This document shows positions 11,059 to 63,701 of a DNA stretch of 64,000 nt, piece by piece (position 1 is the stretch's first letter; the number at the start of each line of letters is the position of its first letter). A model generated the notes under the pieces. That model saw only the letters and a list, made by a program, of their open reading frames with translations, ran no database searches and had not been told where the DNA came from. This stretch comes from an uncultured bacterium (GTDB lineage Bacteria > Babelota > Babeliae > Babelales > JACPOV01), in assembly GCA_963744715.1 (NCBI GenBank), contig CAVUUR010000012.1:168926-232925 (forward strand), read 5' to 3'. The translations under genes were made by a program, and so were the position numbers.

Positions 11059-11163
11059 TTTTTTATTGGCAGTACGCATACCCTTCGTTGACAAATCACC
11101 GTTACTCAGATAAACATTATATGCGTTAAAAATTATTTAAAAATAAACAGGAGATATGTATTT

Positions 11164-11721: not shown

Positions 11722-11829
11722 TGGTTTTTTATTGGCAATGCGCATATCCTTTATTGACAAATAACGGTCACTCCGATAAACATTATATGCGTTGAAAATT
11801 ATTTAAAAAATAAACAGGAGATTCTATTT

Positions 11830-12414
11830 ATGAAGCGTTCTTTATTTGCGGTAATGTTAGCAACTCTAATTGGGTCTGAATCAATTTCTGCTACTCCCGA
11901 CAATGATCAAAAAAATGGCTTATCACAACGTACAGCCGCTTTTGCGGCTCATGGTTTATGCTCGATAGGGTTTGGATTGGCAACAGTATTTTTTGGAAAA
12001 CTTGCACATCAATTTGGCAATACGGAGGCCCGATATGATTTTACAAAGTTTCGTGATACACACAAAGCTTATAACTTTGCCCTCAACGAGGAAAAAGCTT
12101 TAACGTCCGCTCACGACATAATGCGTACGAGCGTAGATGCGCTCAGCAGAAATAGATCTTACTTTGAATCTGATACATCCTATGATAACTTTATAAAGCA
12201 ACTTAAACACTGCAGGGATGACATCGCTTGCCAAGCCAATAGAGCCTCATGGAATACTCGCCATTTGAACTTGAACAGAACTGACGCCATAATAAAACTT
12301 TCAGGGCCATCTGCACGCGTTGCAGCGTTAGGTTTTGTAGCCGCGGGCTGTGCTTATGGAACCTATTGGTTTGGCAAAAATGCTCACAATCGAGTGCGCT
12401 CCCTCAAAGAATAA
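11830..12414 (+). CDS. Family C copy 2
   Basis: N- and C-termini and upstream region conserved with 11164-11721; middle diverged. Confidence 0.75.
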   Translation: MKRSLFAVMLATLIGSESISATPDNDQKNGLSQRTAAFAAHGLCSIGFGLATVFFGKLAHQFGNTEARYDFTKFRDTHKAYNFALNEEKALTSAHDIMRTSVDALSRNRSYFESDTSYDNFIKQLKHCRDDIACQANRASWNTRHLNLNRTDAIIKLSGPSARVAALGFVAAGCAYGTYWFGKNAHNRVRSLKE

Positions 12415-16445: not shown

Positions 16446-19400
16446 CTAGTTCACTATGGTATTTTTTGATTCTAATGTAGCAATTTTAACCCCGAGCCTT
16501 CTAATTTCATCGTCAGTATTGAGTCTTTCAGCCTTAAGTACTGCAATTTCATGAGCTAATACTTTAAGCTGTGCAAGTAATAGCACCGGCAATTCATGAT
16601 ATTTAACCGTTTGCGGTTCTTTATTGTTATCATAAATTACTAAATCCGGAATAGTATCCGCCACTTCTTCAGCAATTAAGCCGTAGTGAATTTCATCTTC
16701 CCACTCACGGTCTTTATAATTAAACGTGACAGGTCTTAAATCAAGCACGTTAGATGAAATTATATCTTTAATATTTTTTTTATATCGGGCGGAAGAAGCC
16801 GCAACCCCAAGCTGACCTGCAGCAGAAACTAAAACAGTCGCACCGCTGACCGTAACGCCAGAAATACCAGCAATAAATGCAGCTGTAGTACCACCGATAC
16901 GAAGTTTCCCACTTTCTGCCGCGACGCCATCATGGTTTAAATATATATTATTGCTTTCGCTACTTGATAAATTACTTCCTGCGAATAGACCTATTGCAAT
17001 ATTACCTGTCCCGGTCGTCAAACTCACAAGTGCTTCTCCACCTAAAGCACAATTGCCATTACTACCAGTCGTTAGCGCAAGACCAGCTCCTAGGCCCACC
17101 ACGTTATTAGAGCTTCCCATAGTTGCATTTCCAGCTGATGCCCCTATTGCTATATTATTATTTGCATCGGTCATCGAAAGAGTCATTGCGGTTCCAGAAC
17201 CAGAAAATTTTACCGTAGCCCCAGCACCAGATCCAGCCTTAAGCGAAAGCGAGTTTCCGGTCACTGATCCTGAATCGTTGGTAATCGTAAATGTCTGAAA
17301 GGTAGGGGCATTGCCGGTACCGTTCGAAGTTAATAATTGTCCAGCAGTACCAACCGTGGTGGTATTCAATTTAGTACCATCATAATACACAACGCCGTCG
17401 GTGTTAGTCATCGATGTAGCATTCGTACCGCCATCCGCAATCGTCACGGGCACTGCTAGTGCATATGATAAGGTGGTAGCATTATTGGTTATCGACAATC
17501 CTGCCCCGGCCGTTGGTGTTATAAATGAAGGTGCACCTGAACTTCCAATAAGAACTTGGCCACCTGTTCCTGCTGTTGTTGCTGTTATTGGCGAAGTTCC
17601 ATTTCCTAACAAAACACCATTAGAGGTCAGGGTAGATGCTCCAGTACCACCGTTTGCAACTGAAACCGGCGTTGTAAGAGCTATTGTCGCACTGCCGCCA
17701 AGCGATACTGGCGAGCCGGTTACTGTTATTCCTGTTCCACTTGTTAAGGTAATCGAACTGTTACTTAACGCAGCATTCGGTACCGTACCAAAACTTGGAG
17801 CTGCGCCGGTGTTACCTAAAAGAACCGTATTCGTTGCGCCAACCGCTATCGAAGTTAATGAACCACTACTATTACCAATTTGAACAGCATCATTGGTAGT
17901 ACCCGATACAGCGACCGTCATAACAGTTCCACTGCACGTTGTGTTTATATTACTTGAACCTGTGCCTGAAATAGTAACGGTCGTCCCAGTAACGGAACCC
18001 GTATTACCATCGATAGTTGCTATACGCGTCAAAGCATTCTGAAAACTAGGAGCAACGCCGGCACCATTTGACGTTAATAATTGGCCGGCAGTACCAACCG
18101 TGGTGGTGTTCAATTTAGTGCCATCATAATACACAACGCCGTCGGTGTTAGTCATCGATGTAGCATTTGTACCGCCATCCGCAATCGTCACGGGCACTGC
18201 TAGTGCATATGATAGGGTGGTAGCATTATTGGTTATCGACAATCCTGCCCCGGCCGTTGGTGTTATAAATGAAGGCGCACCTGAACTTCCAATAAGAACT
18301 TGTCCACCCGTTCCTGCTGTTGTTGCTGTTATTGGCGAAGTTCCATTTCCTAACAAAACACCATTTGAGGTTAAGGTAGATGCTCCAGTTCCTCCGTTTG
18401 CAACCGATACCGGCGTTGAAAGAGCTATCGTTGCACTGCTGCCAAGTGATACTGGCGAGCCGGTTACTGTTATTCCTGTTCCACTGTTTAAGGTAATTGA
18501 GCTATTGGTTAGTGCAGCATTCGGTACCGTGCCAAAACTTGGATCGGCGCCAGTGTTACCTAAAAGAACCGTATTGGTTGCTCCAACCGCTACCGGACTT
18601 AGCGAACCACTACTATTACCAATTTGAACTGCATGATTAGTAGTACCCGATACGGAAACCGTCATGATAGTGCCACCATTGCCAGAAGTTGTTATATTAT
18701 TGCCGCCTGCAATCGTAACGGTCGATCCGGATATTGAACCCGTATCACCATTGATAGTTGTTATACCCGACGCGGCGGCTGATTGAAAGGTAGGGGCACT
18801 ACCACTACCATTCGAAGTTAATACTTGGCCAGCAGTACCAACGGTTGTGGTGTTCAATTTAGTACCATCATAATACACAACGCCGTCGGTGTTAGTCATC
18901 GATGTAGCATTCGTACCGCCATCCGCAATCGTCACGGGCACTGCTAGTGCATATGATAGGGTGGTAGCATTATTGGTTATCGACAATCCTGCCCCGGCCG
19001 TTGGTGTTATAAATGAAGGTGCGCCTGAACTTCCAATGAGAATTTGTCCACCCGTTCCTGCTGTTGTTGCGGTTATTGGCGAAGTTCCATTTCCCAACAA
19101 AACGCCATTTGAAGTTAAGGTAGATGCTCCAGTTCCTCCGTTTGCAACCGATACCGGCGTTGAAAGAGCTATCATTGCACTACCGCCAAGTGCTACCGGT
19201 GATCCGGTCACTGATATTCCTGTACCACTGTTTAAGGTAATTGAGCTATTGGTTAGTGCGGCATTAGGTACCGTCCCAAAACTTGGATCAGCACCCGTGT
19301 TGCCTAAAAGAACCGTATTGGTTGCTCCAACCGCTACCGAACTTAATGAACCGGTACTATTGCCAATTTGAACTGCATGATTAGTAGTGCCCGATACAGA

Positions 19401-21377
19401 AACCATCATAGTGGCAATATCATCGCCAGAAGTTTCTATATTATTGCCGCCTGAAATCGTAACGGTCGATCCGGAGATTGAACCCGAATCGCCATTGATA
19501 GTCGTTATACTTGTCGCAAGTGTCTGAAAGGTTGGGGCGTTACCGGCACCGTTCGAAGTTAATAATTGGCCAGCAGTACCAACCGTGGTGGTATTCAATT
19601 TAGTACCATCATAATACACAACACCATTGGCATTAGTCATTGATGTAGCATTCGTACCGCCATCCGCAATCGTCACGGGTATTGCAAGACTTATCATTGC
19701 ACTACCGCCAAGTGCGACCGGCGAGCCGGTTACTGATATTCCTACACCATCCGTTAAGGTAATTGAACTGTTAGTTAACGCGGCATTCGGTACCGTACCA
19801 AAACTTGGATCAGCACTCGTGTTGCCTAAAAGAACCGTATTGGTTGCTCCAACCGCCACTGAACTTAATGAACCGGTACTATTACCAATTTGAACGGCAT
19901 GATTAGTAGTACCCGATACGTTAACGGTCATAGTAGCGGCACTGCCAGACGTTGTTATATTATTGCCACCCTCAATAGTAACGGTCGATCCGGAGATTGA
20001 ACCGGTATTACCATTGATAGTTTCTATACTTGTCGCAGACGTCTGGAAGGTTGGGGCATTGCCCGTGCCATTTGACGTTAATACTTGACCAGCAGTACCA
20101 ACCGCGGTGGTATTCAATTTAGTACCATCATAATACACAACGCCATCGGTATTAGTCATCGATGTAGCATTAGTACCGCCATTTGCAATCGAGACTGGCG
20201 TTGAAAGAGTTATCGTCGCACTGCCGCCAAGTGCTACTGGCGAGCCGGTAACTGATATTCCTGTACCACTGTTTAAGGTAATTGAACTATTAGTTAACGC
20301 AGCATTAGGCACCATACCAAAACTTGGATCAGCACCCGTGTTACCTAAAAGAACCGTATTGGTCGCTCCAACCGCTACTGAACTTAATGAACCGGTACTA
20401 TTACCAATTTGAACGGCATGATTGGTAGTACCCGATACGGAAACCGTCATAGTAGTGCCACTACCAGAAGTTGTTATATTACTGCCAATGGGACCTGAAA
20501 TAATAACGGTCGATCCGGATATTGCACCCGAATTGCCATCGATATTTGCTATGCCTGACCCACCACTACCCGTTACAAAAATAGGTGACACGCCCGGTCC
20601 GCGGGAAGTTAAAATTTGGCCAGCAGTACCAACCGCGGTAGTATTCAATAGAGTACCATCGTAATACACAACGCCGTTGGCATTAGTCATTGATGTAGCA
20701 TTCGTACCACCATTGGCAATTGAAACGGGAACGGTTAAATTCACCACCGGATTTACCGTCGGATTTCCCGTAATAGTTATTCCCGTACCACCGGTAACCG
20801 ATGCTACGCTACCGGTACCTGGGGAAGATCCATTAACCAACAAGGTGCCATTTACACTTAACGTGCCGTTTACTATTTCAAAACCATTCACTATTAATGC
20901 GTGATTCACTGCTAAAAATCCGACGGTTAAATCACGTTTGAATTTTGAACTTTTATAATGATTCTCATCAACATTCATATCACCAGGTTCTACGTACAGA
21001 TCACCTAAGATTAATTTTGTTTTATATTCTTCAATATCTGATCTGATGCTATCTAATGGCGCATTGCATTCGTGTAACGCAATTGAATCTAAACATTCAT
21101 TAACCACGTACATCAGTGATGAGTACTCTGCAATATCTCCTTCATGTTCAATATCCTGGCACAACCTTTTGAATGCTAATGACCATTCATGATCAACCAA
21201 AGCTTTTTCGAGTGCCAAAAGCGCCGTTTGAAGCTCGGGAGAAAGATATACCAGTTTAGCATTGTCAATCTCTTGTTTTTCTGATCGTTCATTACCTTGA
21301 TCCAATGCAACTAACATGTTTGGTGGGAACGTAAGATATAACAACGATAATAATACGATAACTTTTTTATTAACCAC
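16446..21377 (-). CDS. Paralogous larger fibre/adhesin protein with S74 domain
   Basis: Near-identical N-terminal ~180 aa and S74 domain to the 12478-16425 protein, with more repeat modules. Confidence 0.85.
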   Translation of the reverse strand: MVNKKVIVLLSLLYLTFPPNMLVALDQGNERSEKQEIDNAKLVYLSPELQTALLALEKALVDHEWSLAFKRLCQDIEHEGDIAEYSSLMYVVNECLDSIALHECNAPLDSIRSDIEEYKTKLILGDLYVEPGDMNVDENHYKSSKFKRDLTVGFLAVNHALIVNGFEIVNGTLSVNGTLLVNGSSPGTGSVASVTGGTGITITGNPTVNPVVNLTVPVSIANGGTNATSMTNANGVVYYDGTLLNTTAVGTAGQILTSRGPGVSPIFVTGSGGSGIANIDGNSGAISGSTVIISGPIGSNITTSGSGTTMTVSVSGTTNHAVQIGNSTGSLSSVAVGATNTVLLGNTGADPSFGMVPNAALTNSSITLNSGTGISVTGSPVALGGSATITLSTPVSIANGGTNATSMTNTDGVVYYDGTKLNTTAVGTAGQVLTSNGTGNAPTFQTSATSIETINGNTGSISGSTVTIEGGNNITTSGSAATMTVNVSGTTNHAVQIGNSTGSLSSVAVGATNTVLLGNTSADPSFGTVPNAALTNSSITLTDGVGISVTGSPVALGGSAMISLAIPVTIADGGTNATSMTNANGVVYYDGTKLNTTTVGTAGQLLTSNGAGNAPTFQTLATSITTINGDSGSISGSTVTISGGNNIETSGDDIATMMVSVSGTTNHAVQIGNSTGSLSSVAVGATNTVLLGNTGADPSFGTVPNAALTNSSITLNSGTGISVTGSPVALGGSAMIALSTPVSVANGGTGASTLTSNGVLLGNGTSPITATTAGTGGQILIGSSGAPSFITPTAGAGLSITNNATTLSYALAVPVTIADGGTNATSMTNTDGVVYYDGTKLNTTTVGTAGQVLTSNGSGSAPTFQSAAASGITTINGDTGSISGSTVTIAGGNNITTSGNGGTIMTVSVSGTTNHAVQIGNSSGSLSPVAVGATNTVLLGNTGADPSFGTVPNAALTNSSITLNSGTGITVTGSPVSLGSSATIALSTPVSVANGGTGASTLTSNGVLLGNGTSPITATTAGTGGQVLIGSSGAPSFITPTAGAGLSITNNATTLSYALAVPVTIADGGTNATSMTNTDGVVYYDGTKLNTTTVGTAGQLLTSNGAGVAPSFQNALTRIATIDGNTGSVTGTTVTISGTGSSNINTTCSGTVMTVAVSGTTNDAVQIGNSSGSLTSIAVGATNTVLLGNTGAAPSFGTVPNAALSNSSITLTSGTGITVTGSPVSLGGSATIALTTPVSVANGGTGASTLTSNGVLLGNGTSPITATTAGTGGQVLIGSSGAPSFITPTAGAGLSITNNATTLSYALAVPVTIADGGTNATSMTNTDGVVYYDGTKLNTTTVGTAGQLLTSNGTGNAPTFQTFTITNDSGSVTGNSLSLKAGSGAGATVKFSGSGTAMTLSMTDANNNIAIGASAGNATMGSSNNVVGLGAGLALTTGSNGNCALGGEALVSLTTGTGNIAIGLFAGSNLSSSESNNIYLNHDGVAAESGKLRIGGTTAAFIAGISGVTVSGATVLVSAAGQLGVAASSARYKKNIKDIISSNVLDLRPVTFNYKDREWEDEIHYGLIAEEVADTIPDLVIYDNNKEPQTVKYHELPVLLLAQLKVLAHEIAVLKAERLNTDDEIRRLGVKIATLESKNTIVN

Positions 21378-21672: not shown

Positions 21673-24600
21673 ATGTCTGCCCATTTTACTCACCTGCATT
21701 TGCATACTGAATTTTCTTTGCTTGATGGGGCAATCAGCCTTGATCGATTAATTGCATTTGGCAAGCAGCACAGTTTTAAATCGCTGGCTATTACCGATCA
21801 TGGTAATATTTTTGGTGCTGTGAAATTTTTTCAACAATGTAAAAAAGCTGGCATTAAACCCATTTTGGGCATTGAATCCTATTTTACCGAAGATATTTCG
21901 GTAAGATCGGTTGAAAAAAAATATCATCATCTTATTTTACTGGTGCAAAATGAGATTGGTTATAAAAATTTATGTAAATTAATTTCATTTTCCTATCAAC
22001 AAGGCTTTTATTTTAAACCGCGCATTGATTACCACATATTAGAAAAACATTCCGAAGGCCTTATTGCAACAACCGCTTGTTTAGGAGGCCATATTCCTTC
22101 ATTACTCATGAATGATCACTATGAGCAGGCAGAAAAACGGATGGATTGGTTTTTATCCGTGTTTGGGCATGATCGATTTTTTTTTGAAGTGCAACCAGAA
22201 GATCAACAAGAACAAGTAATGCTCAATAAAAAATTGTATGAGTGGAGTGCCAAAAAAAATATTAAACTGGTTGCCACCGCAGATTGCCACTATGTTTTGC
22301 CGGAAGACCGTGAAGCGCATGAAGTAATGCTCGCTATTCAAACACAACACAAAATGAGTGATCCCGATCGATTTACCTTTGGGCAATGCCGCGCCTATAT
22401 GAGAACCGCCGACGAAATGCTTGAGATTTTTAAAGATCATCCAGAAGCGGTGTGGAATAGTGGCTTTATTGCTGATCAATGCCATTTTGATTTTAAAACC
22501 GGCACCCTATTTTTTCCGCAATTTGTTATTCCTGAGCACCATACTGCTGACAGCTTTTTTACTACCTTATGTAACGAAGGGTTCAATGCACTTGTTACGC
22601 AAGGACGCATACCATCCGAACAATGTGAAGAATACAAACACCGTCTTGAAGTAGAATGTAGTCTCATTATAACAATGGGATTCGTTGGTTATTTTTTGGT
22701 AGTAAGTGATTTTATCCAGTGGGCAAAACGAAATGGTATTCCGGTCGGACCCGGCCGTGGCTCTGCTGCCGGTTCATTAGTGGCCTGGTCATTACAAATA
22801 ACCAATATTGACCCCATTAAATATAACCTCCTTTTTGAACGATTTCTCAATCCGGAACGGGTCACGATGCCCGATATCGATATCGATTTTTGTATTGAAG
22901 GTCGCGATACCGTTATTAACTACGTGCGGGATAAATACGGCCATGAAAAAGTTGGGCAAATTATTACCTTTGGTACCATGCTTGCAAAAGGTGTTGTAAA
23001 AGATGTTGCACGCACCTTAGGAATGCCGTTTGAAGATGCCAATGGCATAACCAACCTTATTCCCGAACAATTAAAAATAACGTTACATGAAGCTATTGAA
23101 CAAGAACCTCGTTTAAAAGAAATGATTGATAACAATCCTAAAGTGCATCATTTGTTTGACATCGCTTTGAAACTCGAGGGAATAACCAGACACGCTTCAA
23201 AACATGCGGCCGGTATCGTTATATCCCCTGAACCAATTGATGAAGTATTGCCGGTGTACGTTCCGCCAAAAAGTAATGAATTGGTAACCCAATATGCTAT
23301 GACCGAACTTGAAAGTTTGGGATTTTTAAAAATAGATTTTCTCGGTTTAAAAAACCTAACGCTCATCGATCGCGCTATCAAGTTAATTGCTTCTCAACAA
23401 GGAATTACCATTGATATTGATGCATTGCCGTTGGATGATCCGAAAACATTTACGTTACTAGGGCAGGGAAAAACATCAGGCGTTTTTCAATTGGAATCGG
23501 AGGGTATTAAAGAGGTACTGATCAAGCTCCAAGCGGAAAAGTTTGAAGATATTATTGCGGTAAACGCATTATACCGACCAGGGCCTTTAGGATCGGGCAT
23601 GGTCGATGATTTTATTCAACGCAAACATGGCAAACAAAAAATTAGTTATTTATTTATCGAGCTGGAACCGATATTACAAGAAACTTATGGCGTTATTGTT
23701 TATCAAGAACAGGTTATGAAGATTGCTTCTAGCATTGCTTCATATTCGCTGGGAGAAGCTGATATTTTACGCCGCGCGATGGGTAAAAAAAAGCCGGAAG
23801 AGATGGCAAAACAGCGTTCATTATTTCTGGAACGTGCTGCAAAAAATAATTTTAATGAAACAAAAGCCGGAGAACTTTTTGATTTAATGGCCTATTTTGC
23901 CGGTTATGGTTTTAACAAATCGCACTCAGCTGCTTACGCTCTTATTGCATATCAAACAGCTTATCTTAAAAGCAAATTTTCCTGCAGAGTTTATGGCCTG
24001 TTTAATATCGCTTGAATCAAGCAATGCCGAAAAAATGTCTTTTTATCTGCAAGAAACTAAGGATATGGGATTATCCTTACATATCTCCTAATATTAATAC
24101 TTCCCAGATCCATTTTAAGGTAATTGATGGTGCACTTCTTTTTGGGCTACAAGGTATTAAAAATGTCGGGTTAGCAGCCTTAGAAACTATTATTGAGGAA
24201 CGCAAAAAACAACCTTACAAAGATCTTTTTGATTTTTGTATACGCGTTGATTTACGAACTGTTAATAAACGGGTTATTGAAAGCCTAATTTGCGCCGGAG
24301 CCTTTGATCAATTACCAGGAAATCGCGCACAAAAGTATGAAGAATTATCGATTATTATGGATAAGGCCGTTGAACGGAAAAAAGCATTGGCAACCGGACA
24401 ACTCGGCCTCTTTGATAGCAAACCATCAGCATCTTCAACACAAGAATATGAAGGGCATATATTTGCTCCTCGGGCCGAGTGGGATATTAAACAACAATTA
24501 GAAAAAGAACGCGAAGTTATCGGTTTTTATTTAAGTGCCCATCCGCTTGATCCGTATCAACATTATCTACGCTGGCTTCCTCTCCTTTCTTTTGAGCAAG

Positions 24601-25124
24601 CATTGACCAACGCTCTACAAAAAAAATCCGCTCAAGAACAACCGGTAATAACCTACGGATTAATAACTACGAGCAAACAAGTTATTACTAAAAAAGGGGA
24701 TCGCATGGCTTTTTTACACTGTGAAGATACCGTATCAAAAGCCGAAATTATTATTTTTCCACAATTATTTAAAAAAGTAGAATCATGGTTAACGCAGTAT
24801 CGAGTTTTTATTATTAAAGGAGTTGTTGACGTATCGGCAACACAATGCAAAATAAAAGCAAATGAATTGGTTCCTGCAGAGCTCTTTTTTCAAGAATGGT
24901 CAGGTATAAAATCGATTTATTTAACCCTGCCAAATCAGTTTGAAGAATCGTTATTAACCACGATAAAAGAACGTTTGGTAAACGGAAAAGTACCACTTTC
25001 ATTAATTTTTTCCGATGCAGAAAAAAAATTATGTCTAAAAACTAAACAATCGGTTGCATTGGATGCTGCTACTATTCACCATCTCGAACAACATAAGATC
25101 AAAGTTACGGTTGTTCCTGCATAG
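21673..25124 (+). CDS. dnaE: DNA polymerase III alpha subunit (two apparent +1 frameshifts near 23970 and 24080)
   Basis: PHP HLHLHTEFSLLDG, GPGRGSAAGS, PDIDIDF, YGFNKSH; YLKANFPAEFMA and the C-terminal OB fold continue in successive frames. Confidence 0.95.
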
Positions 25125-30120: not shown

Positions 30121-30777
30121 TTACATAACCTCTATAGTCCAATTATCATCAATCTTAAAGGACCCTTTATTATCTACATTCTCCAAAATTCCCAAATAAG
30201 TTTTTTCCTTATTGCCCGTCTCAAAGTTCCAGATTTCAATAGTTTCATCTTTGGTTAAGAATGCTATTTTTTTTCCGGTAGGATCAAAGCCGACCTCTTC
30301 TGCCGAAGAACAAATAGTAGTACAACCCATATTGCGTTCTATATCCTCAAAGGCATGAAACACTCTAACTAAAGATTTTGTACAAACCATTAATGCCGCT
30401 TTACCTAATATCCCACCATCAGGATGAATTTTACAATCTAAAATATCATAAGGTAACGTAATTTCATTTTTTTCTATAGTGTGCAAGTCTTTGATATTAA
30501 TTTTAGTGATCTTATTATTTTCTACGCTCGTCAAATACCTGATTCCTTCTTTTTCCAAAACATTCCACGTAGATTTACCTATGATATCATGCCATTTGTT
30601 AATATGTTTTCGCTCTTTTTGTAAATTTTTGGACTTTTCCCACATATCTTTACTACATTGCTCTAAATTTTCTATTTTTATTGATGGCGATACTCTAAGA
30701 TGCATATATAATAAAGGATCCAAACCATAACTCAACTGAGCAACACTCAACATTGCAACAAGTGATAACATTCTCAT
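30121..30777 (-). CDS. Secreted protein with WD40-like repeat
   Basis: Signal peptide; VGFDPTGKKIAFLTKDETIEIWNFETG. Confidence 0.65.
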   Translation of the reverse strand: MRMLSLVAMLSVAQLSYGLDPLLYMHLRVSPSIKIENLEQCSKDMWEKSKNLQKERKHINKWHDIIGKSTWNVLEKEGIRYLTSVENNKITKINIKDLHTIEKNEITLPYDILDCKIHPDGGILGKAALMVCTKSLVRVFHAFEDIERNMGCTTICSSAEEVGFDPTGKKIAFLTKDETIEIWNFETGNKEKTYLGILENVDNKGSFKIDDNWTIEVM

Positions 30778-30811
30778 ACAACAAAACCTCTGTAATTATT
30801 TTTTTATTCTG

Positions 30812-31465
30812 CTATTTTTTCTCATTTTCTTTATTTCTATATTGCCAAACATCAGCAAAATTTACATTCGTTAAAGATTCTTTACACCTTGGCGAATCAC
30901 GTTGACTCCGGCTCCATATCTCAATAGTGTTATCGTTTTTTAAGAATGCCATTTCTTGAGTTGAAAGATTAAAACTAACATCTTTTGCTGGACAATCATT
31001 AATAAAAAACAGGCGTCCTTCATCGCGACCTTCCTTTACGCAATTAATGTTGATAGTATAGCATGCACTATCTGTACAAATAAATAAGCCTGACCGCCAA
31101 CTCCCTTGATAAAAAGGATCAAAATCAATTTTTGAAATCTTATCATCACTTATTGTAAACTTTATTATTTGATTTTTTTCGGTATCAAATTTAATCAATT
31201 CATTAGTATTCTTTTTGAAACTAATCCAATATGGTTTTCCTTCTTTCTGTATGCCCTTAGTAAATCCAACCATGGCATTTTGACGTTGTTTAATATCCTG
31301 TAATTCCTTCGGCAGTTTCAATTCTTTATTGAGCTCATTATTAAGCTTTTCTATCATATCCACCTTCATTGATGGCAATACACGCAAATGCGTATATATT
31401 AAAGGATTTATACCATAACCCAACTGAACAACACTCAACATCGCAACAAGTGATAACATTCTCAT
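30812..31465 (-). CDS. Paralog of 30121-30777 (WD40-like)
   Basis: Identical upstream ~35 nt and near-identical signal peptide; DVSFN...MAFLKNDNTIEIWS. Confidence 0.65.
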   Translation of the reverse strand: MRMLSLVAMLSVVQLGYGINPLIYTHLRVLPSMKVDMIEKLNNELNKELKLPKELQDIKQRQNAMVGFTKGIQKEGKPYWISFKKNTNELIKFDTEKNQIIKFTISDDKISKIDFDPFYQGSWRSGLFICTDSACYTININCVKEGRDEGRLFFINDCPAKDVSFNLSTQEMAFLKNDNTIEIWSRSQRDSPRCKESLTNVNFADVWQYRNKENEKK

Positions 31466-31572: not shown

Positions 31573-33988
31573 TTACTTCTTATTCGTTGCGTTTCTCAAT
31601 AAAAAAGGGATCACCGAGTCAGCATTTAAAGAAACTGAATTAATACCGAGCTTTATAACAAAGTCAGCAATATCCGGATAATCCGAAGGTGCTTGCCCAC
31701 ATATGCCGCTATGTTTTTTATTATGTTGTGCACCACGAATTGCCATTTCAATCATTTTTTTTACGGCCGGATCATGTTCATTAAATAACGGCGCTAATAA
31801 TGCTGAATCTCTATCAACCGCCAACGTCGTTTGCGTTAAATCATTTGATCCAATAGAAAATCCATCAAAAAAATTGCTAAATTCATCGATCAATAAAACA
31901 TTAGAGGGCAATTCACACATCATATAGAGTTCTAAACCATCTTTGCCACGAACAAGCCCATGCTTTTTCATACGTTCAACTACTTCTTGAGCTTCTTGGG
32001 TTGTTCTCACAAAAGGAATCATTAATTTAACATTGCGCAAACCCATTTCTGAAAGCACTTTTTTCATTGCTGCGCACTCCAAAGCAAAAGCGCCTTCATA
32101 CAACGGGCTATAATACCGCGATGCGCCGCGCAACCCTAACATTGGGTTTTCTTCTACCGGTTCAAAATAGGTCCCGCCCAATAAATTTCTATACTCATTG
32201 CTTTTAAAATCAGAAAAACGCACAATGACCGGCCGTGGATAAAAAGCAGCGGCAATCATGCCAACTCCTTGTGCGAGAAGATCACAAAAAAATGTTTTTG
32301 CATCTGGATACGCAGAGGTAATCTGTTCAATCTGTTTTTTACACTGTGCATCAGTAATTTTTTCAGGCATTACGGCCGCCATAGGATGTATTTTAATCAT
32401 GCTACCAATAATAAATTCAATGCGTGCCAACCCGACACCATCAACCGGCAACAACGATTGCTGAAATACTTGATCAGGGTTTGCACAATTAACCATGAGC
32501 TCAATAGACAATTTGGGTAACGTTTCGATATTAATTTTTTTAGTTTCTACCGGCACATCTCCATCGTACACAAAGCCACGTTGCCCTTGAGAACAATCAA
32601 CCGTTACCATGTGTCCATGTTGGATACTACTCAGCGCATGTTCTGCCCCAATTACCGCAGGAATTCCTAATTCACGGCTAACAATTGCAGCATGGCTCGT
32701 TCTACCACCTCGCTCAGTAATTAATGCGGCTGCTTTTTTCATTAATGGTAACCAATCAGGATCAGTCATTGATGTTACCAAAACATCTCCCTGCTTGAAC
32801 TTGTTCACTTCAGGATCTTGTATGGTTTTTATAATGCGCGCGGTTCCACTCGCAATAGTTTGCCCAATACTTTGGCCTTCCACTATTACCCGTTTTTTTA
32901 GATCATCGTGGCTAATACCTTGTAAACGATATTCTATCAATTCAGATTTTTTTTGCTCATTATGAATGGTTTCGGGGCGTGCCTGCACAATATACAATAA
33001 CCCATCAACACCATCTTTGGCCCATTCAATATCCATAGGAGCCCATGATTTTTTAAGTTCCGAGTAATGTTTTTCTATGGTAAGTGCCATGCCAGCAAGC
33101 GCTAGTATTTCTTCATCAGATAAACAAAAATGTTGTTGTTCCTTTAATGATGTTTCAATAATGTTCACCAATGAAGATTGATCGGCAGAATACACCATTT
33201 TTTTTGTTTTTTGCCCCAGCTTTTTTTTAATAATAGGCTTAAAGCCTTGCTGCAACGTTGGTTTATGCACACAAAATTCATCCGGCGTAACCATTCCTTT
33301 TACAACCAGTTCACCCAAACCCCATGAAGCATTAATGGTGACCACTTGCCTTAAATCCGGTTTCCGTATCAAGGGTAAAAATAACGCCCGCAGTTGCTTT
33401 ATCAGAGCGCACCATTTTTTGAATACCAACCGAAAGTGCGGTATGAAAATGATCAAATTTTTTTTCGATCCGATACATAATGGCACGATCGGTAAATAAT
33501 GAGGCAACGCATTTTTTATAATAGGTCAGCACCTGTTCAATACCATGTACATTCAAAAAACTATCATGTTGCCCTGCAAAAGAAGCGGTCGGTAAATCTT
33601 CCGATGTCGCCGATGAGCGAATCGCAACAAAACATTGGTGTTCTTTATATAACGCACAAAGATCCTTATATGCTTGCCGTATTTCCGCCTCAAGATCTGC
33701 CGGAATAACACCACCTTCAAGTAATGTACGCAGTTCAGCACCAACTTTTTTTAAAACAGCGATGTCACTGGTTGTTGTTATGCGCCCCATTATTTTTTTC
33801 ATGCGATCAAGAAAATTATTAGCATTGATATAATGCCAATATGCTTGCGCAGTAACAGCAAAACCCTGCGGAATACGAATATTTTTTTTGCTGATGTGTT
33901 GTATCATTTCCCCTAATGAAGCATTTTTGCCGCCAACTAAGGGAATATCGTTAATCGTAATTTCTTGAAAATTTTTAATATAATGCAT
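31573..33988 (-). CDS. ppsA: Phosphoenolpyruvate synthase (apparent +1 frameshift at ~33350)
   Basis: VGGKNASLGEM, RSSATSEDLPTASFAGQ, GGRTSHAAIVSRELG, FSIGSNDLTQ, GICGQAPSDYP; extra G in TTT AAG G CAA GTG. Confidence 0.95.
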
Positions 33989-47668: not shown

Positions 47669-48316
47669 TCACTCATCATCAGCAATTTCATGCCAACCAT
47701 AACCAGTGCCAAGACTCTTCTTATGAGCCGATTCATAAACTTCCAAAGCTTTAGGCTGTGTTAAAAGTATTTTTTCAGCCAGCCCAGGATTAAGCATAGC
47801 AAGATCGTCATTATGCAGATGCAAAGCACTCAACAGATCTTTAAATTCATGTATAAATGCAATGCGCCCAAAGATGCGATAATCTAACATCTCGTCAAGA
47901 GCCAAAAAATCAAAACTATTGGCAGAATCCATAATGGCTTGATCATTACCTTCAATACTAAACTTCACCATAACATTAGCCATTCGTTCTTTCTTTTCCC
48001 ACCTCTCTTGCACATTATGGAGTTTTTTACTATGCAATTCTTCCAATATCTGTAACGTTGGCACAATCACCTTGTCCCAGATATTTGGCTTGATAGGTAT
48101 TGCAATTTTTTCTTGAATAGTACCTGCCAATTCCAAGCCCGGTTTAAGCACTGGTGAACACACAAGGTATTTTTTTGCAATGGTTCGTTCTTGATCACCT
48201 GCAAGCACAATAGTAACTGGTGCTTCCAGATTGTGCGTATTGGCAATTTCCATGCCACAACAATCAGAAAATAAAATACCGAGTAACAACATTTTCAGCA
48301 TACCATGTTTTTGCAT
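47669..48316 (-). CDS. Secreted Skp1/BTB-POZ-like protein
   Basis: Signal peptide ...CCG-MEI; VTIVLAGDQERTIAKKYLVCSPVLK...IAIPIKPNIWDKVI; ANSFDFLALDEML. Confidence 0.55.
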   Translation of the reverse strand: MQKHGMLKMLLLGILFSDCCGMEIANTHNLEAPVTIVLAGDQERTIAKKYLVCSPVLKPGLELAGTIQEKIAIPIKPNIWDKVIVPTLQILEELHSKKLHNVQERWEKKERMANVMVKFSIEGNDQAIMDSANSFDFLALDEMLDYRIFGRIAFIHEFKDLLSALHLHNDDLAMLNPGLAEKILLTQPKALEVYESAHKKSLGTGYGWHEIADDE

Positions 48317-56371: not shown

Positions 56372-57442
56372 TTATACGGCTATTTTTTTTCGACGTTCTA
56401 CTTGTTCTTGTGCCATGAGTGCTTGAATAATTTCATCAAGATCCCCTTCCATAACCATATCAAGTTTTTTCAACGTCACATCAACTTGATGATCGGTTAC
56501 GCGATTTTGAGGAAAATTATACGTACGCACTTTTTCGGAACGCATACCGCCACCAATCATTTCTTTTCGTTTTTGGCTTTCTTCAGTTTCCTGTTTTTCT
56601 TTTTGTGCTGCTAGGAGTCGGGATTGCAGCATCTTCATCGCTTTTGCTCTATTTTTATGTTGAGAACGTTCTTCTTGGCAGGCAACCACAATACCGGTTG
56701 GGATATGAGTAATACGGATAGCCGAATCAGTTTTATTAACATGCTGACCGCCTGCACCTCCGGCGCGATAGGTATCAACGCGCAAATCGCTTGGTGATAT
56801 TGAATATTCAACTTCCTGTGCTTCAGGCAATACCGCCACCGTTGCGGTTGAAGTATGCACACGCCCCGATGTTTCAGTTTTTGGTACTCGTTGCACCCGA
56901 TGCACACCAGCTTCATGCTTTAAATGTGAGTAGGCACCCTTACCTTCAATATGCAACGTAGCTTCTCGAATGCCACCAAGATCCGTCTGACTTGAGTCAG
57001 CTAATGAAACGTCCCATTTTTGTTTTAGGGCATAATTGGTATACATTTTAAGTAAATCAGCGGCAAATAGTGCGGCTTCTTGCCCACCAGTACCGGCACG
57101 AATTTCCAAAAATACTGAGCGATCATCTAATTCATCGGGCGGATATAATAAGGTTTCTAATTCCAATTCCTGTTGTTGCAATTTTTTCTGCAACGTAGCC
57201 AGTTCCTCATGAAACAGCTGTTTCATCTCCTCATCAGAGTTGGAACTTTTTGATAGCTGATCTTGTACCTCAGCTATAAGGTTTTTTGTTTTTTCCAGGC
57301 CTTTATGCTTTTCCAAGAGAAAGGAAAGGCGCGCATGTTCTTTTTGAAGAAGATGTCTTTTTGATGAATCCAAAAGCGGTGCGGTCAGCTCTTTGCTCAG
57401 TTCATCACACCGCTTCTGCCATTCTTGCCAGGGAAGTTCCAT
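56372..57442 (-). CDS. prfA: Peptide chain release factor 1
   Basis: EIRAGTGGQEAALFA, HRVQRVPKTE (PxT), GGQHVN, RTYNFPQNRVTDH. Confidence 0.97.
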   Translation of the reverse strand: MELPWQEWQKRCDELSKELTAPLLDSSKRHLLQKEHARLSFLLEKHKGLEKTKNLIAEVQDQLSKSSNSDEEMKQLFHEELATLQKKLQQQELELETLLYPPDELDDRSVFLEIRAGTGGQEAALFAADLLKMYTNYALKQKWDVSLADSSQTDLGGIREATLHIEGKGAYSHLKHEAGVHRVQRVPKTETSGRVHTSTATVAVLPEAQEVEYSISPSDLRVDTYRAGGAGGQHVNKTDSAIRITHIPTGIVVACQEERSQHKNRAKAMKMLQSRLLAAQKEKQETEESQKRKEMIGGGMRSEKVRTYNFPQNRVTDHQVDVTLKKLDMVMEGDLDEIIQALMAQEQVERRKKIAV

Positions 57443-57445
57443 AGC

Positions 57446-57679
57446 TTATTTTTTTTTACTAGATTTACTAGGTTTATCAGATTTTTTATTGAATCGTTTT
57501 TCAAACTTTTCAATACGTCCTGCAGTATCAATTAACTTCTGTGATCCGGTATAAAATGGATGACAAGAAGAACAAATGGTTACCCTAAGTTCTGGCATTG
57601 TTGAACTGGTCACAAAAGAGTTTCCGCATGCACAATGCGCAGTAATTTCATGCATTTCCGGGTGTATACCTGTTTTCAT
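57446..57679 (-). CDS. rpmE: 50S ribosomal protein L31 (zinc-binding type)
   Basis: [27 protein letters not shown]. Confidence 0.97.
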
Positions 57680-57795: not shown

Positions 57796-58587
57796 TTAAA
57801 CACAATCCAAGCGTTTTTTAAATAATCGCAGTGAGCTCAGCGCAAATATGAGGGTAAAAACCCAAATCATAGCCAAACAGACCCAAATATTAATAAACCC
57901 TTCTTGCCCGAGGGTAGCCGCGCGCATCCCTTCAAAGGTGTATACTAACGGGTTCGCTAAACTGATACCTGCAAACCATGGTAATGCTGTGTACATAGTA
58001 GCCCAAGAAAATTGAAATCCGGCCAACGTAAATAACTGCCATCCCCAACGTATCCAAAACCGCCCAAATCCGAGTACATCTTTAACCCATAGCGCAATGC
58101 ATAAGGAAAAAAAACCGAACATGATATTCATACTTACATAGATTAAAACCGTTTTAATTAATGAAATATTACCTAACGCCGATCCATGATTTCCTAACAG
58201 GAGAACGCCCAGCGGGAAGATAAATACATTAAATATTGCGGCTTTTATTGCGTACACTAATGCCGTTTTTACACATATGAGCCAGGATAAACTGGGCAAT
58301 GAAAGCTCATATGCTATTGATTTTGGCCCGGTTAAATCGGTTACCAAATCACCGGCATCGGTACCGGTTGCATTAAAACACATGCCTATTGCTGATGCTG
58401 AAAGCATAAATGCTCCAAAGTCTGCCGGCAAACCAAGTGAAGGCATTATATAACCACTAACAAAGATCATGCCAATAGGAAGCAATAAAACATCGAGTAA
58501 ATTTTGCCAAAAATCTTTGGTGATTACGCGTAAATCGCGCCATATAAGCCAGAAAAAAACTGAATATGCTAAACGCATCGTTTTCAT
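57796..58587 (-). CDS. ABC-2 type transporter permease
   Basis: Six TM segments, NPLVYTFEGMRAA; adjacent to an ATPase. Confidence 0.85.
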   Translation of the reverse strand: MKTMRLAYSVFFWLIWRDLRVITKDFWQNLLDVLLLPIGMIFVSGYIMPSLGLPADFGAFMLSASAIGMCFNATGTDAGDLVTDLTGPKSIAYELSLPSLSWLICVKTALVYAIKAAIFNVFIFPLGVLLLGNHGSALGNISLIKTVLIYVSMNIMFGFFSLCIALWVKDVLGFGRFWIRWGWQLFTLAGFQFSWATMYTALPWFAGISLANPLVYTFEGMRAATLGQEGFINIWVCLAMIWVFTLIFALSSLRLFKKRLDCV

Positions 58588-58604
58588 AACATTCCTTACT
58601 AAAT

Positions 58605-59348
58605 TTATTGCTCATCAATAAGATGAATAAATACTTCTTCAAGATTTTTTTTACTGTATGAACTCATTAAACGTTCTGGCGTTTCTATTAGTAGAATTAA
58701 TCCGTTATGTAACACACAAACACGATCTGAAAGAATTTCTGCTTCATCCAAATAATGGGTGGTCAATATAACGGTAACCCCTTGGTCACGCAGTTGCTTA
58801 ATGAATGCCCATAATTCTCGTCGTATGTGCGGATCAAGCGCCACTGTTGGCTCATCCAAAATAACCAAACGCGGGTCATGAACTAAGGCCCGTGCAATTA
58901 ATAGACGTTGTTTATAGCCACCAGATAATATTTCAGGCAATGATGATGCATATGGTTTTAGCTCAAATTGTTCCATCAAACTATCGACGCGCTTACGAAT
59001 TTCTTCATACTTCATACCAAAATAGCGTCCCGCAAACATCAAATTTTCTTCGACGGTCAAATTCTTTTCAAAATTAGGTTTTTGAGGGCAAAACCCTAAT
59101 ATCTTACGATAGTTGATAAGGTTTTGATAAATCGATTCACCTTCAAATAAGATATCACCGGAACTTGCAGGATGCACCGTAGCAATGATTGATGAAAGGG
59201 TTGTTTTGCCAGCACCATTAACACCCAATAAACTAATAATTTCACCTTGATTAATCGTTAACGAAACACCTTTAAGCGCTTCTATCGTTTCATTATTACG
59301 TCGATATGTTTTTTTTATGTTATTAATAGTTAACAATGTAGGAGCCAT
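58605..59348 (-). CDS. ABC transporter ATP-binding protein
   Basis: GVNGAGKTT, LSGGYKQR, ILDEPT, TTHYLDEA. Confidence 0.92.
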   Translation of the reverse strand: MAPTLLTINNIKKTYRRNNETIEALKGVSLTINQGEIISLLGVNGAGKTTLSSIIATVHPASSGDILFEGESIYQNLINYRKILGFCPQKPNFEKNLTVEENLMFAGRYFGMKYEEIRKRVDSLMEQFELKPYASSLPEILSGGYKQRLLIARALVHDPRLVILDEPTVALDPHIRRELWAFIKQLRDQGVTVILTTHYLDEAEILSDRVCVLHNGLILLIETPERLMSSYSKKNLEEVFIHLIDEQ

Positions 59349-59588: not shown

Positions 59589-60143
59589 TTATTGTGCTTT
59601 TTTTGATAATAAATCAAACGTAGATTGAAGAAAACTTTCTAGGCTATTAGCGTCGTAATGTGCCACATCTTGTTCGTAGCGATCAATTTCTTCCCTATTA
59701 TCGATAACGAGCATGGTTGGTAAATGATCAATTTCACTATGCTCTGCAATACGAAAAAGTTCTTCGGCATTGATGCGAACCCACTTAGCACTATTTTTAT
59801 GGTTTTCTGCTACATGCATGACAGCAGTGCGCATTGTTTCCCATTCTTGGTTATCCTTAAAAAAAATTACCACCACAGGATCCTTATAATTAAGCACTTC
59901 TGCTTCAAATGCCATTTCGGCAGGGCTAAAATTTCTTGTCAATAAGATTATACCTTCTTGAGATGTATCATCTTCTAATACTTTAGTAAGAGCATCTTCT
60001 TGGATTAATTTCATAATAATATTTGTTGATGCTGTAAGATCGATAACTACTTCCTCTTGATCTCCTTTAATAGCATGTTTTTCCAAACTCTTACATGCGG
60101 GTATTAATAACATTAATAGTACTAAAATTTGCAATACAAACAT
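59589..60143 (-). CDS. Thioredoxin-fold protein lacking CxxC, possible lipoprotein
   Basis: FEAEVLNYKDPVVVIF, KWVRINAEE, LPTMLV (cis-Pro); LLIPAC lipobox-like. Confidence 0.65.
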   Translation of the reverse strand: MFVLQILVLLMLLIPACKSLEKHAIKGDQEEVVIDLTASTNIIMKLIQEDALTKVLEDDTSQEGIILLTRNFSPAEMAFEAEVLNYKDPVVVIFFKDNQEWETMRTAVMHVAENHKNSAKWVRINAEELFRIAEHSEIDHLPTMLVIDNREEIDRYEQDVAHYDANSLESFLQSTFDLLSKKAQ

Positions 60144-60176: not shown

Positions 60177-60674
60177 TTAATAATATCCCGCACGAAAATG
60201 GCGCGTCCTTTTATGCTGCTTAATTGCCCCCTCCTTATCAAAACTTTCTTCACATTGATTGCAAGGATATGGCAACAGATCATGCTTTATTCTAAAGTGA
60301 CTTGCTGCAAGACCCCATCCAGAAAAATCTTGCCTACATGCTGGACAAAATTTCTGTTGCTCAGAAAAGAATTTTCGAAGTTCCGAAGAATTTGATGTTT
60401 CTATAGCAGCTAAAAAAATTTCAGGCGTCATAAAATCGGGTATTACAAAGCCGACTCCCTTACTGTCTAACATGCTCCTAATATTTTTAAGTTCATCGCA
60501 ACCGGAAAGATGCTTTGGCATTTCACGTAGAAGAAAAGGTCCTTTATTACACCCGTTACAATATTGCAAATCATCAGTAGTACTTGTAATTTTGATGATT
60601 TCCATACCAAATATTGGATCACTCAAAAGGCACAACAATATACTCAAAACATAACTATTAATTACTGTATTCAT
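60177..60674 (-). CDS. Secreted C2H2 zinc-finger protein 1
   Basis: Signal ...IFG-MEI; CPAC..F......SHFRIKH, PYPCNQCEESFDKEGAIKQHKRTRH. Confidence 0.85.
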   Translation of the reverse strand: MNTVINSYVLSILLCLLSDPIFGMEIIKITSTTDDLQYCNGCNKGPFLLREMPKHLSGCDELKNIRSMLDSKGVGFVIPDFMTPEIFLAAIETSNSSELRKFFSEQQKFCPACRQDFSGWGLAASHFRIKHDLLPYPCNQCEESFDKEGAIKQHKRTRHFRAGYY

Positions 60675-60682
60675 CGTTATGT

Positions 60683-61663
60683 TCAATCAATTTTTTTACG
60701 AAGTCGGGTAAAAATCAATCCACGTCCATAAGGAAATTGTGGGGGCAAAGCTTGCTTACCATCTAATATATTATGTTCTGTAGTTCTATGAAGTGCAAGA
60801 TCGCTTTTCTTAAATATTGTTCTACATTCATCACAAAAACATTGTCTCGAACCACCCTTTTTCTTACTGTTTTTTTTCTTTATTCCCTTTGCCACCGATA
60901 ATAGTTCACATCTTTTATCATGTTCCTTAATTTGATGTTTCTTAAGATCTTGCTGATGTGAAAAATCTTTTTCACATTTAGCACACGGATAGGGTTTTCC
61001 GTTATGCTCGCTCCTGATATGCACCGCAACATGCCCCCATCCCCATACTGTTGTAAAGCGACATAATGGGCACTTTTTTATCTCTTCCGATGACGATCTC
61101 ATTTCTAATAACGATGTCCTTACTCGGTTAACACGTTGTTTTTCTCGATTTTGTACCACATTCAAATCACTACCATCGCAATTACCTTCTTGCTGTTCTG
61201 GGCGATACTCCGATGCACTAACAAATATTGGGTGGGCTACGGCCTTATGGCCTTCAAGATCTTTTTTACTAAGAACTTCCCCGCATTCATCGCAACTATT
61301 TTTTGCCGGACGACCCTTTTTTCTTACATCCGATAAAAGTTTCTCTGCATTCATTTTTTCTTGGACAAGCAATGATGAACTTAAATCTTTAGCGTACGGT
61401 TGCGGCTTTTCTTGATATTCAGGTATCGTTAATATAGCTCCTTTTTCATGCAACATCTTTGCAGTACGTAGTAATGCGGGGCATTGAACGATATGATTTA
61501 ATAATTTATCTTCGGAACCTTGATCAGTCTTGCACATATTACAATATTGCTCAGTAATACAAGAATTTTCATTATTATTTTTTTCGATCTCCATACCAAG
61601 TATTGGATTACTCAAAAGACAAATAGTTAGACTAATGGTATATTGATTGATTAATGTATCCAT
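60683..61663 (-). CDS. Secreted C2H2 zinc-finger protein 2
   Basis: Signal ...ILG-MEI; about five fingers including KPYPCAKCEKDFSHQQDLKKHQIKEH; basic KKKNSKKK patch. Confidence 0.88.
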   Translation of the reverse strand: MDTLINQYTISLTICLLSNPILGMEIEKNNNENSCITEQYCNMCKTDQGSEDKLLNHIVQCPALLRTAKMLHEKGAILTIPEYQEKPQPYAKDLSSSLLVQEKMNAEKLLSDVRKKGRPAKNSCDECGEVLSKKDLEGHKAVAHPIFVSASEYRPEQQEGNCDGSDLNVVQNREKQRVNRVRTSLLEMRSSSEEIKKCPLCRFTTVWGWGHVAVHIRSEHNGKPYPCAKCEKDFSHQQDLKKHQIKEHDKRCELLSVAKGIKKKNSKKKGGSRQCFCDECRTIFKKSDLALHRTTEHNILDGKQALPPQFPYGRGLIFTRLRKKID

Positions 61664-61784
61664 GGATCATTCTTTCATTTTTAAAATAATTATTGCAGAT
61701 ACTGTAACAAAATTAAATACACTTGTAACTACAAAAAATATAATATAATTATTTTGAATTTTTTTCGTGCGAGTGTAGAGATAA

Positions 61785-62596
61785 TTATGGCTTATGCATA
61801 CGTATATGATTATCAAGCTCTCCCTTATTGGAAAAATCTTCTTCACATGAAATGCACGGATATGGCTTTATTAAATGCTCATTGTTCAAATGCTCTGCAA
61901 GCCGGTTCACTACGGAAAAACCTTACGCGGTTCACACACTAAACATGTTCTAACCTTTTGTTTTGATAAGAAGCTCCTGAATGTTTTAGAAAGTTGTTCA
62001 TAATCCTTTGACTTAATGGATGTTCCTATCACACTAACGTCACCAATCCTGTAATTATTCTCGGTAAACACTTTTGCAGCTGTTGGCAAGAATGCATTGG
62101 CTTTTTCTGGGCAATACACCGGTGTCCCAACTAATATGTGATGCACTAAGGCTTTATGTTCCACAAGCTCTGTTTCACCGAACATTTTCCCACATTCACT
62201 ACAACTATAATGTGCTAGCCTATCCCTTTTTTTACGCACAGGTTCCACTGCAACCCTTGTATATAGATTTTCTTTATTCGATATTTCACACATAGCGAAC
62301 TGACTTTTTCTTTCATACATTAATTTGCTCACAACGATTAAATAATCACACTGAGAAATATGTTCCATTAATTCATCATTTGAACGAAAAATCTTCTTAC
62401 ATATAAAACAGATTGCGTTCTTTTCCAAATTCAGAGAATCAGAAAAATGCTTTTGTAATCCATCTTGAGAATAAAATGTTTCATTACATCCTGTACAAGC
62501 AAAATTTATAATTTCCTCGGTCTCCATACCAAGGATCGAATTACCCAAAAGACAAATAGCTATACTAACGGTATATTTATTCATTAATGTATCCAC
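61785..62596 (-). CDS. Secreted C2H2 zinc-finger protein 3 (frameshift in T-run at ~61918)
   Basis: Signal ...ILG-MET; adding one T extends the ORF with RLAEHLNNEHLIKPYPCISCEEDFSNKGELDNHIRMHKP*. Confidence 0.8.
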
Positions 62597-62785
62597 GCAT
62601 AATTCTTTCACTTTTAAAATAATTATTGCGGATACTGTAACAAAATTGAATATACTTGTTAACTACAAAAATATGGTAATACTTATTTTGAATTTCTTTT
62701 TGGTTCTTTTTAATTTTTCATGTTCATAAGGTAAACAACCAAAAAGACTCCTCTTTGCTGTTTAGCTTATTCACTTATTGTTTTC

Positions 62786-63701
62786 TTAAATGGGGTTAAG
62801 AGATTCCCAGAATACCTCATCTTTATGCGTCATTTGATGCTTTTTAAGTTCTTCTAGGCGGGAACAACCTTGTGAACATATATTACAAGGATATGGGGCT
62901 ACTTTATGTACCTTCTTAAGATGCTTTGCAAGACCAAGCCACTCTACGAATGTTGTTTTGAGGCACATTCTGCAATAGGACATGTTCTTATAGTAGTTCG
63001 ATCAAATAATTTTGACCTTATAGGGTCATCCAATTCTTTGTGTCGATAACATTCCTTATTATGATTTTTAAGATCATATCCTTCTGCAAAATCTTTTTCA
63101 CAATTGCTACACGGATATGGTTTCATGTTATGATGATCCTCACAGTGCATGCGCAACATTCTACCATGCACAAAATGTCCTACCCGGACTCGACGGACAT
63201 TTTAGCGCCCTATTTAGGAATGACGTTCGAGCGTCAATTTTATTACATGATTTTTGATGAATATAAAGCTCTTGTTCTACGTCAAAATCTTTTGACAATT
63301 GTTACAAGGATACGGGTTCGCAGAATATCATTTCTAGCATGCCGTGCAACCTGTCCCCATCTATCGAATGTCATTTTTGGGCACAATAAACACCTAAGCT
63401 CCTTATTCAAAAATAATATTCTCGATGTTTCAGTTATGGATCTTTCTTGAAAATCTTTATCCGTAACATTTAACGCCGGCGTATTTCCTGATGCTATGCA
63501 TCCGGATAACAACACCGCTTCTTCCCTGAACGGTTGCAAGATTTCCCCGGTACTCCCCAGTTCAAGCCATCCTTCGATTTGCTTATTACCACTATCACTC
63601 AAGCTATCATACGTTCTTTTTTTACTGTTCATCGCAAGAATCTGATTGCCAAGTAAAAAAGCACATACAATAATAAAACATTTATTAATTAATTTATTCA
63701 T
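62786..63701 (-). pseudogene. C2H2 zinc-finger protein 4, broken by several 1-nt indels (decay or sequence error)
   Basis: Signal ...ILA-MNS; three finger pairs with PYPC linkers spread over different frames. Confidence 0.7.

Follow-up and report, generated by a model that had tools for sequence, protein, structure and literature searches.

The closest working analogue of the predicted function discussed here is the class of TAL effectors (AvrBs3/PthA, together with Btl of Mycetohabitans). According to the passages covered of PMC7819608 and PMC7382252, they share with the protein family of the genes described below the logic of a repeat array that reads DNA, a nuclear localisation signal (NLS), an acidic segment in many members and paralogues arranged in arrays. 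These genes are four tandem C2H2 zinc-finger genes in a stretch of 64,000 nucleotides (the window; positions 168,926 to 232,925 of contig CAVUUR010000012.1), which is the end of a contig in a 1.26 Mb genome (working label G000, 86% complete) of the Babelota (Dependentiae), intracellular bacteria of protists (PMC12172432, in the parts covered). The four genes are regarded here, with about even confidence, as a degenerate branch that arose by local duplication within a Kruppel-type C2H2 family found across the Babelota, whose members are predicted to be exported and likely act as transcription-factor mimics on host chromatin. TAL effectors have another fold, consist of TAL repeats of 33-35 residues and are type III secreted, whereas the Babelota genes encode Sec-type leaders and no marker of a type III secretion system was found in the source genome. 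Moreover, the function of TAL effectors is proven, whereas that of the Babelota finger proteins is inferred from sequence.

The scaffold itself is that of eukaryotic Kruppel-type C2H2 factors (PF00096/PF13465; ZBTB7A, CTCF, PRDM9, Zif268). These resemble the window genes in finger motif, predicted beta-beta-alpha fold and best matches in the PDB, and the Babelota relatives of these genes in TGEKP linkers, a 28-residue period and the usage of contact residues. In contrast to these factors, the Babelota genes are bacterial, intronless and leader-bearing, and the window fingers are scattered, partly non-canonical and not joined by TGEKP. Within the phylum, ankyrin, F-box, RING and Ulp1-like proteins of Babela and Chromulinavorax show the same combination of a leader with a eukaryotic domain as well as tandem expansion, but they are protein-interaction or ubiquitin modules, and the passages covered do not deal with C2H2 arrays. 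Ros/MucR proteins, as far as the passages covered go, share a bacterial Cys2His2-type zinc site, but the window genes have neither a MucR nor a TAL match in Pfam. Ros/MucR proteins contain a single cytoplasmic finger and have a different architecture.

Analysis of open reading frames (ORFs) and alignments located the four genes on the minus strand, with start positions 63701, 62596, 61663 and 60674, which bears out the tandem array proposed in an earlier note on this DNA.

60177..60674, minus strand: gene 1, intact, 165 amino acids; leader ends in G, followed by M-E; one C2HC-like finger and a C-terminal finger pair (Trp finger plus canonical C2H2 finger)
60683..61663, minus strand: gene 2, intact, 326 amino acids; leader ends in G, followed by M-E; then a C2HC finger, an RKKGRP patch, a short-loop finger, the finger pair, a Lys-rich patch and a final short-loop finger
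61785..62596, minus strand: gene 3, GTG start; single break near 61915; the N-terminal 228 codons hold three finger-like motifs, and the finger pair lies in the shifted tail
62786..63701, minus strand: gene 4, clear leader ending in A, followed by M-N and then KKR; the finger pair occurs three times; the frame is broken about four times from about 63325 to about 62990

The start of gene 1 was picked via alignment with its paralogues. In the source genome, five of the nine matches to the strict motif C-x2-4-C-x12-H-x3-5-H fall within the 3.5 kb of the array, and the zf-C2H2 scan proposed earlier places eight of nine genome matches to PF00096 in the four genes, two of them above the curated cut-off; thus, the array signal is beyond chance. 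The main frame of gene 3 matches PF00096 at 43.4 bits. On separate gene pieces, genes 3 and 4 score above the cut-off and gene 1 below it. The expectation of multiple strict fingers in every gene did not hold: gene 1 has two and genes 2, 3 and 4 have one each, while the remaining window fingers have loops of 11 or 13 residues or Cys as the fourth ligand. Of the basic patches reported as NLS-like, RKKGR and KKKNSKKK were recovered in gene 2 and RKKR in gene 3, but gene 1 has no basic patch outside its fingers. The RKKGRP patch of gene 2 is similar to the core of an AT-hook; gene 3 has no such patch.

The array is part of a much wider family. The notion that multi-finger C2H2 proteins are rare in bacteria fails for the Babelota, as PF00096 is found at E <= 0.01 in 100 of 261 phylum genomes (source included), 59 of them above the cut-off, and in 13 of 21 families, compared with one of 14 control genomes. 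PF13465 was detected in nine of 29 genomes (28 with at least 97% completeness plus the source) and in none of the 14 controls. For closer comparison, 60 regions were taken, mostly around top-scoring matches, with single-contig genomes and same-family loci in addition, yielding 95 ORFs with at least two fingers from 36 genomes and eight families. Because the regions were picked mostly at the best-scoring matches, this sample leans to canonical members. Sixty-seven of the 95 genes are in tandem, 50 lie on contigs of at least 200 kb, and finger arrays also occur inside single-contig genomes. Eight tandem leader-bearing finger genes each were seen in G013 (region L055 7101-15936; up to 12 fingers per gene) and in the single-contig genome G024 (region L096 5949-16967; up to 10 fingers per gene).

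This family, spread across the Babelota, is apparently undescribed. A search of open-access papers returned no description of these proteins, the combination of 'Dependentiae' and 'C2H2' giving 0 results, and a word search for 'zinc' and 'finger' in the main texts of PMC4776705, PMC4378268, PMC12172432 and PMC12644861, as far as these were covered, gave no C2H2 passage. The searched files of the supplement to PMC4776705 (2016) hold automatic C2H2 labels for five genes of SOIL31, three of SOIL82 and one ankyrin fusion of Babela. Scanned against GTDB as a pattern, one canonical member retrieved its own locus only, and a scan of viral contigs with one canonical protein gave no match. Poly-finger proteins are also annotated on six matched plasmid records, so the scaffold also occurs outside the Babelota. 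Those of Burkholderia sp. MS455, Cardinium and a Salmonella plasmid are likewise bacterial, with four in tandem in Burkholderia, but five were translated and have no hydrophobic leader, and the Burkholderia proteins have more than 500 residues before the first finger. The independent-looking Burkholderia array (L138 6544-20562) comprises four tandem genes with 6 to 17 C2H2 fingers, and an adjoining gene is annotated as a cycle-inhibiting factor. C2H2-type proteins are also encoded on plasmids of Cardinium (an arthropod symbiont; L139 5222-6049) and of the enterobacteria Salmonella and Pantoea, one of them under an RHS-core annotation. No functional paper on these plasmid proteins surfaced in the literature search.

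The anatomy of the sampled family would suit exported, DNA-reading proteins. Of the 91 family ORFs with a closed 5' end, 83 scored as leader-bearing, compared with 397 of 1111 ORFs genome-wide in the source; the heuristic is crude, at least seven of 128 checked matches being plainly cytoplasmic. In 42 of the 83 proteins an NLS-like motif stands before the first finger, and in 48 one lies anywhere outside the fingers, compared with about 15% of length-matched and shuffled controls. TGEKP-type linkers make up 160 of 392 linkers and occur in 26 of the 34 genomes that have linked fingers, and 238 intervals show the 28-residue finger spacing. At residues -1, 2, 3 and 6, family usage matches that of 490 fingers from 70 named animal matches (Jensen-Shannon, JS, 0.02-0.04), and 535 sampled fingers hold 452 distinct sets of contact residues. 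Acidic-aromatic windows of 30 residues were found in 40 of the 83 proteins but in 4% of control windows; as the control windows are mostly globular, this excess partly reflects disorder.

From these features, a mechanism can be proposed. The proteins would be exported via Sec and cleaved so that Met is left at position 1, would be released across the outer membrane by a type II/pilus secretin system or in vesicles, and would be loaded with zinc and folded in the host cytosol. The basic patches could then mediate nuclear import, or these small proteins might enter by diffusion, and the finger arrays would read DNA while, in canonical members, acidic segments recruit host machinery. The window proteins would use their two-finger unit to bind at low specificity or by way of a partner, and genes 3 and 4 may be spent copies.

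Several observations weigh against this proposal, most of them concerning the window genes themselves. Their linkers, previously likened to the Kruppel linker, do end in PYPC, but all are of the form x-x-x-P-Y-P-C, none is TGEKP, and they join pairs rather than arrays. Fourteen of 16 scored window fingers lie below the 30th percentile of the family for contact residues, seven of them at or below the 8th, and an acidic activation-like segment was found in none of the four main window frames tested. On the side of the family, the 95-protein sample is weighted to genomes with top scores, and the animal fingers used for comparison had been picked for their resemblance to a single member. In paralogous fingers of the relatives, pN/pS is 0.96 for contact codons, which is not clearly above 1 and falls short of proving positive selection, and 0.16 for core codons, a contrast that is biased because the pairs were chosen on non-contact codons. 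The window four are, in motif and design, members of the family yet poor candidates for reading long DNA sites. The earlier idea of an exported, nucleus-targeted mimic therefore gains from the anatomy of the phylum-wide family and loses from the weak signs of DNA reading in the window four; it fits the family better than the window genes.

The N-terminal leaders bear on where these proteins end up. All four window leaders are hydrophobic and end in G or A followed by Met, as had been noticed, but the leaders of genes 1 and 2 have no Lys or Arg in the n-region and fail the signal-peptide heuristic, which also counts against export of these two; genes 3 and 4 pass. Of the 397 ORFs with a leader in the source genome, 150 have a small residue and then Met behind the hydrophobic stretch (for example, window leaders such as that of 47669-48316); the corresponding counts are 34 of 396 for a control window placed downstream and 70 of 491 for leaderless ORFs. 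The residue after Met+1 is Glu, Asp, Asn or Gln in 56% of cases versus 21% after internal Met, and in the family Met follows the predicted cleavage site in 62 of 83 leader-bearing proteins. Eukaryotic NatB acts on proteins starting with Met-Glu, Met-Asp, Met-Asn or Met-Gln, and an N-terminal Met is stabilising. Among the 128 of 397 leader ORFs that were Pfam-scanned, Met+1 occurs in none of nine envelope-resident families but in three of six ankyrin proteins. The envelope-resident set is our own grouping (TolB, FKBP, OmpA, DUF2807, M23, OmpH, amidase, TamB and ABC binding protein); thioredoxin and the M3 peptidase were flagged and left out because their family does not fix their location. Altogether, the Met+1 pattern suggests a cytosolic destination.

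A Sec leader alone ends in the periplasm, and the fingers could accordingly be structural zinc modules of periplasmic or surface proteins that never reach the host cytosol. This is very unlikely, given that no anchor or envelope domain is present, that NLS-like patches and acidic segments are enriched and that envelope residents lack Met+1. For the step beyond the periplasm, the source genome encodes two secretins and two GspF/PilC loci, and within its 86% completeness no match to the type III marker FHIPEP, to VirB4, to VipB/TssC or to DsbB was found. According to the parts covered of PMC4378268, type II secretion is the sole system detected in Babela, and its authors considered it likely that the ankyrin proteins with leaders enter the cytoplasm of the amoeba. 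Chromulinavorax has signals in 44% of its proteins, and vesicles bud early in infection (PMC6561590, passages covered). A published route from the Babelota periplasm to the host nucleus was not found in the literature examined, as far as it was covered, which is a further point against nuclear delivery. Exported DNA binders might alternatively be directed at host-cell DNA of another kind, for instance that of mitochondria or of the factories of co-infecting giant viruses. In the passages covered, Chromulinavorax remodels the host mitochondrion (PMC6561590) and multipartite giant-virus associations are described for these hosts (PMC12644861), but the enrichment of NLS-like motifs speaks against such targets, and this explanation is highly improbable.

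The window genes themselves are characterized by a finger pair and by duplication of an upstream region.

61571..61765, no strand assigned: upstream region and leader-coding start of gene 2; copy 80% identical to 62504-62698 over 195 nucleotides
62504..62698, no strand assigned: upstream region and leader-coding start of gene 3; copy 80% identical to 61571-61765 over 195 nucleotides
60190..60360, minus strand: finger-pair module, gene 1 copy; one of six copies, DNA alignment with a mean column identity of 66%
near 60920-61090, 61790-61960, 62820-62990, 63040-63215 and 63240-63410, minus strand: the other five finger-pair copies, from DNA alignment

The upstream duplication noticed earlier is therefore real and longer than claimed. 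Each pair consists of a first finger with Trp at helix position +1 and Ala at +5, a linker ending in PYPC and a canonical finger. In a protein alignment of the three intact pairs, the metal ligands and PYPC are invariant despite 34-39% identity, as are the Trp and Ala of the first finger, and a Trp at helix +1 is found in none of 536 other Babelota fingers. In tandem CWCH2 pairs (Zic/Gli/Zap1), Trp lies between the two Cys of both fingers (PMC2837044, passages covered), whereas the window pair has Trp only at the start of the first-finger helix; the assignment to CWCH2 was rejected on this difference in Trp position. For the gene 2 pair, an AF2 model that leans on an alignment with 79 related fragments shows two beta-beta-alpha fingers with a pLDDT of 85, the inter-finger angle being unreliable (pTM 0.56); single-sequence prediction reached a pLDDT of only 32. 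In a fold search, the modelled pair differs from DNA-bound fingers by a root-mean-square deviation of about 6.5 A, with none at E <= 0.001 and with the same unreliable angle, which also counts against DNA reading. An Atlas search gave mixed C2H2 clusters of low recognition, which serve as leads only. The homologue search with gene 2 returned its self-match only among 811 candidates, and a profile of the N-terminal module had no match in 260 other phylum genomes. A metagenome scan with the finger pair gave three matches, all eukaryotic and set aside as irrelevant; they are presumably Spalt-like proteins.

The invariant Trp and Ala could belong to exported, host-directed effectors whose fingers bind proteins, ubiquitin or RNA instead of a DNA sequence. 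Such binding would suit the isolated C2HC and short-loop fingers of the window, several of which are acidic, as well as the weak Pfam matches to UBZ, jaz and Zap1 fingers below the cut-off. The family, however, retains DNA-type linkers, the 28-residue spacing and animal-like contact residues, and the best PDB sequence matches of gene 2 are the DNA-binding fingers Aart, ZBTB7A, PRDM9 and CTCF. This explanation, the leading rival, suits the window four more than canonical members and is possible but doubtful.

In the present assembly, the reading frames of genes 3 and 4 are interrupted. One explanation is a decaying expansion, with these two genes reduced to pseudogenes and little function remaining in genes 1 and 2. 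With about four breaks in about 340 bases, gene 4 exceeds the rate of frame changes near contig ends, which is 1.1 per kb within 5 kb of an end compared with 0.13 per kb elsewhere; one gene 4 finger has lost a Cys, the N-terminal module has no relative in the 260 other genomes, and conserved neighbours at the same contig end are intact. However, gene 4 lies at most 1.2 kb from the contig end, and 15 of 92 conserved genes in the source assembly have frame changes, including five of six at most 5 kb from a contig end, the only intact one being the ABC ATPase gene that adjoins the array. Within the window, dnaE (21673-25124) and phosphoenolpyruvate synthase (31573-33988) each fall into two overlapping frames, as indels in the assembly would produce. 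Also, the conservation of metal ligands and PYPC in the intact pairs is at odds with decay. Assembly error and decay are about equally likely as causes of the breaks in genes 3 and 4, while decay of the whole array is unlikely.

The genomic context of the array is bacterial.

56372..57679, minus strand: prfA and rpmE, bacterial housekeeping context
57796..59348, minus strand: ABC ATPase and permease-like gene, a conserved anchor that finger genes adjoin in G098 and G099 too
59589..60143, minus strand: thioredoxin-fold protein with a hydrophobic lipobox-like leader and no CxxC, 34 bases downstream of gene 1

The position of the array at a contig end and the mostly animal best matches of a canonical member in the full database might indicate eukaryotic or viral contamination. 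But the array is contiguous with prfA and rpmE, its GC content of 0.35-0.37 is the same as that of the contig, and the genes are intronless with bacterial leaders. In G098 and G099, which belong to the same family as the source, leader-bearing finger genes lie immediately upstream of the same ABC-prfA block. Contamination is rejected because of this synteny and the arrays in single-contig relatives; the bacterial origin, local duplication and divergence proposed earlier are upheld. Since the N-terminal module is unmatched in 260 genomes and finger genes occupy the same site in G098 and G099, the array represents a lineage-specific expansion at a long-established site. In the orthologous locus of G101 the ABC-prfA block is present without a finger gene, and none of seven more distant ABC loci has one upstream; for these reasons, a functional link to the ABC transporter was not adopted. 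A link to the thioredoxin-like neighbour was rejected as well, as the two are not coupled in the one relative found.

Elsewhere in the window, a TLC ATP/ADP translocase is encoded, which fits the assignment to the Babelota. Two tandem giant Gly/Thr/Ser-rich repeat proteins with leaders (12478-16425 and 16446-21377), the first with DUF7592 repeats and a C-terminal Peptidase_S74 chaperone domain, suggest trimeric fibre adhesins. Further duplicated pairs of leader-bearing orphan genes lie at 7860-12414 and 30121-31465, so exported proteins are commonly duplicated in tandem in the source genome.

Taken together, it is tentatively proposed, with somewhat less than even confidence, that, across the phylum, the eukaryotic Kruppel array serves as an arsenal of programmable transcription factors exported to act in protist hosts, in which each lineage would expand its own tandem array. 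The post-cleavage Met, mostly followed by Glu, Asp, Gln or Asn, would mark cargo for the host cytosol and provide a host-like stable N-terminus, and the window array would be a lineage-private branch with a new Trp-finger pair. Babelota are widespread obligate parasites of protists, and the discussion of how they control their hosts has so far centred on ankyrin proteins. If the proposal is true, over a third of the genomes use the commonest DNA-reading scaffold of animals as an effector, a counterpart of TAL effectors whose fold resembles that of host proteins. As part of the recognition code of C2H2 fingers is known, target motifs would be predictable and could be checked against host genomes. 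The 452 contact sets among the 535 fingers represent a natural library. Met+1 is in turn a simple candidate marker of host-directed cargo in Babelota. The main interest therefore lies in the phylum-wide family that the array has exposed, more than in the four degenerate genes of the window.

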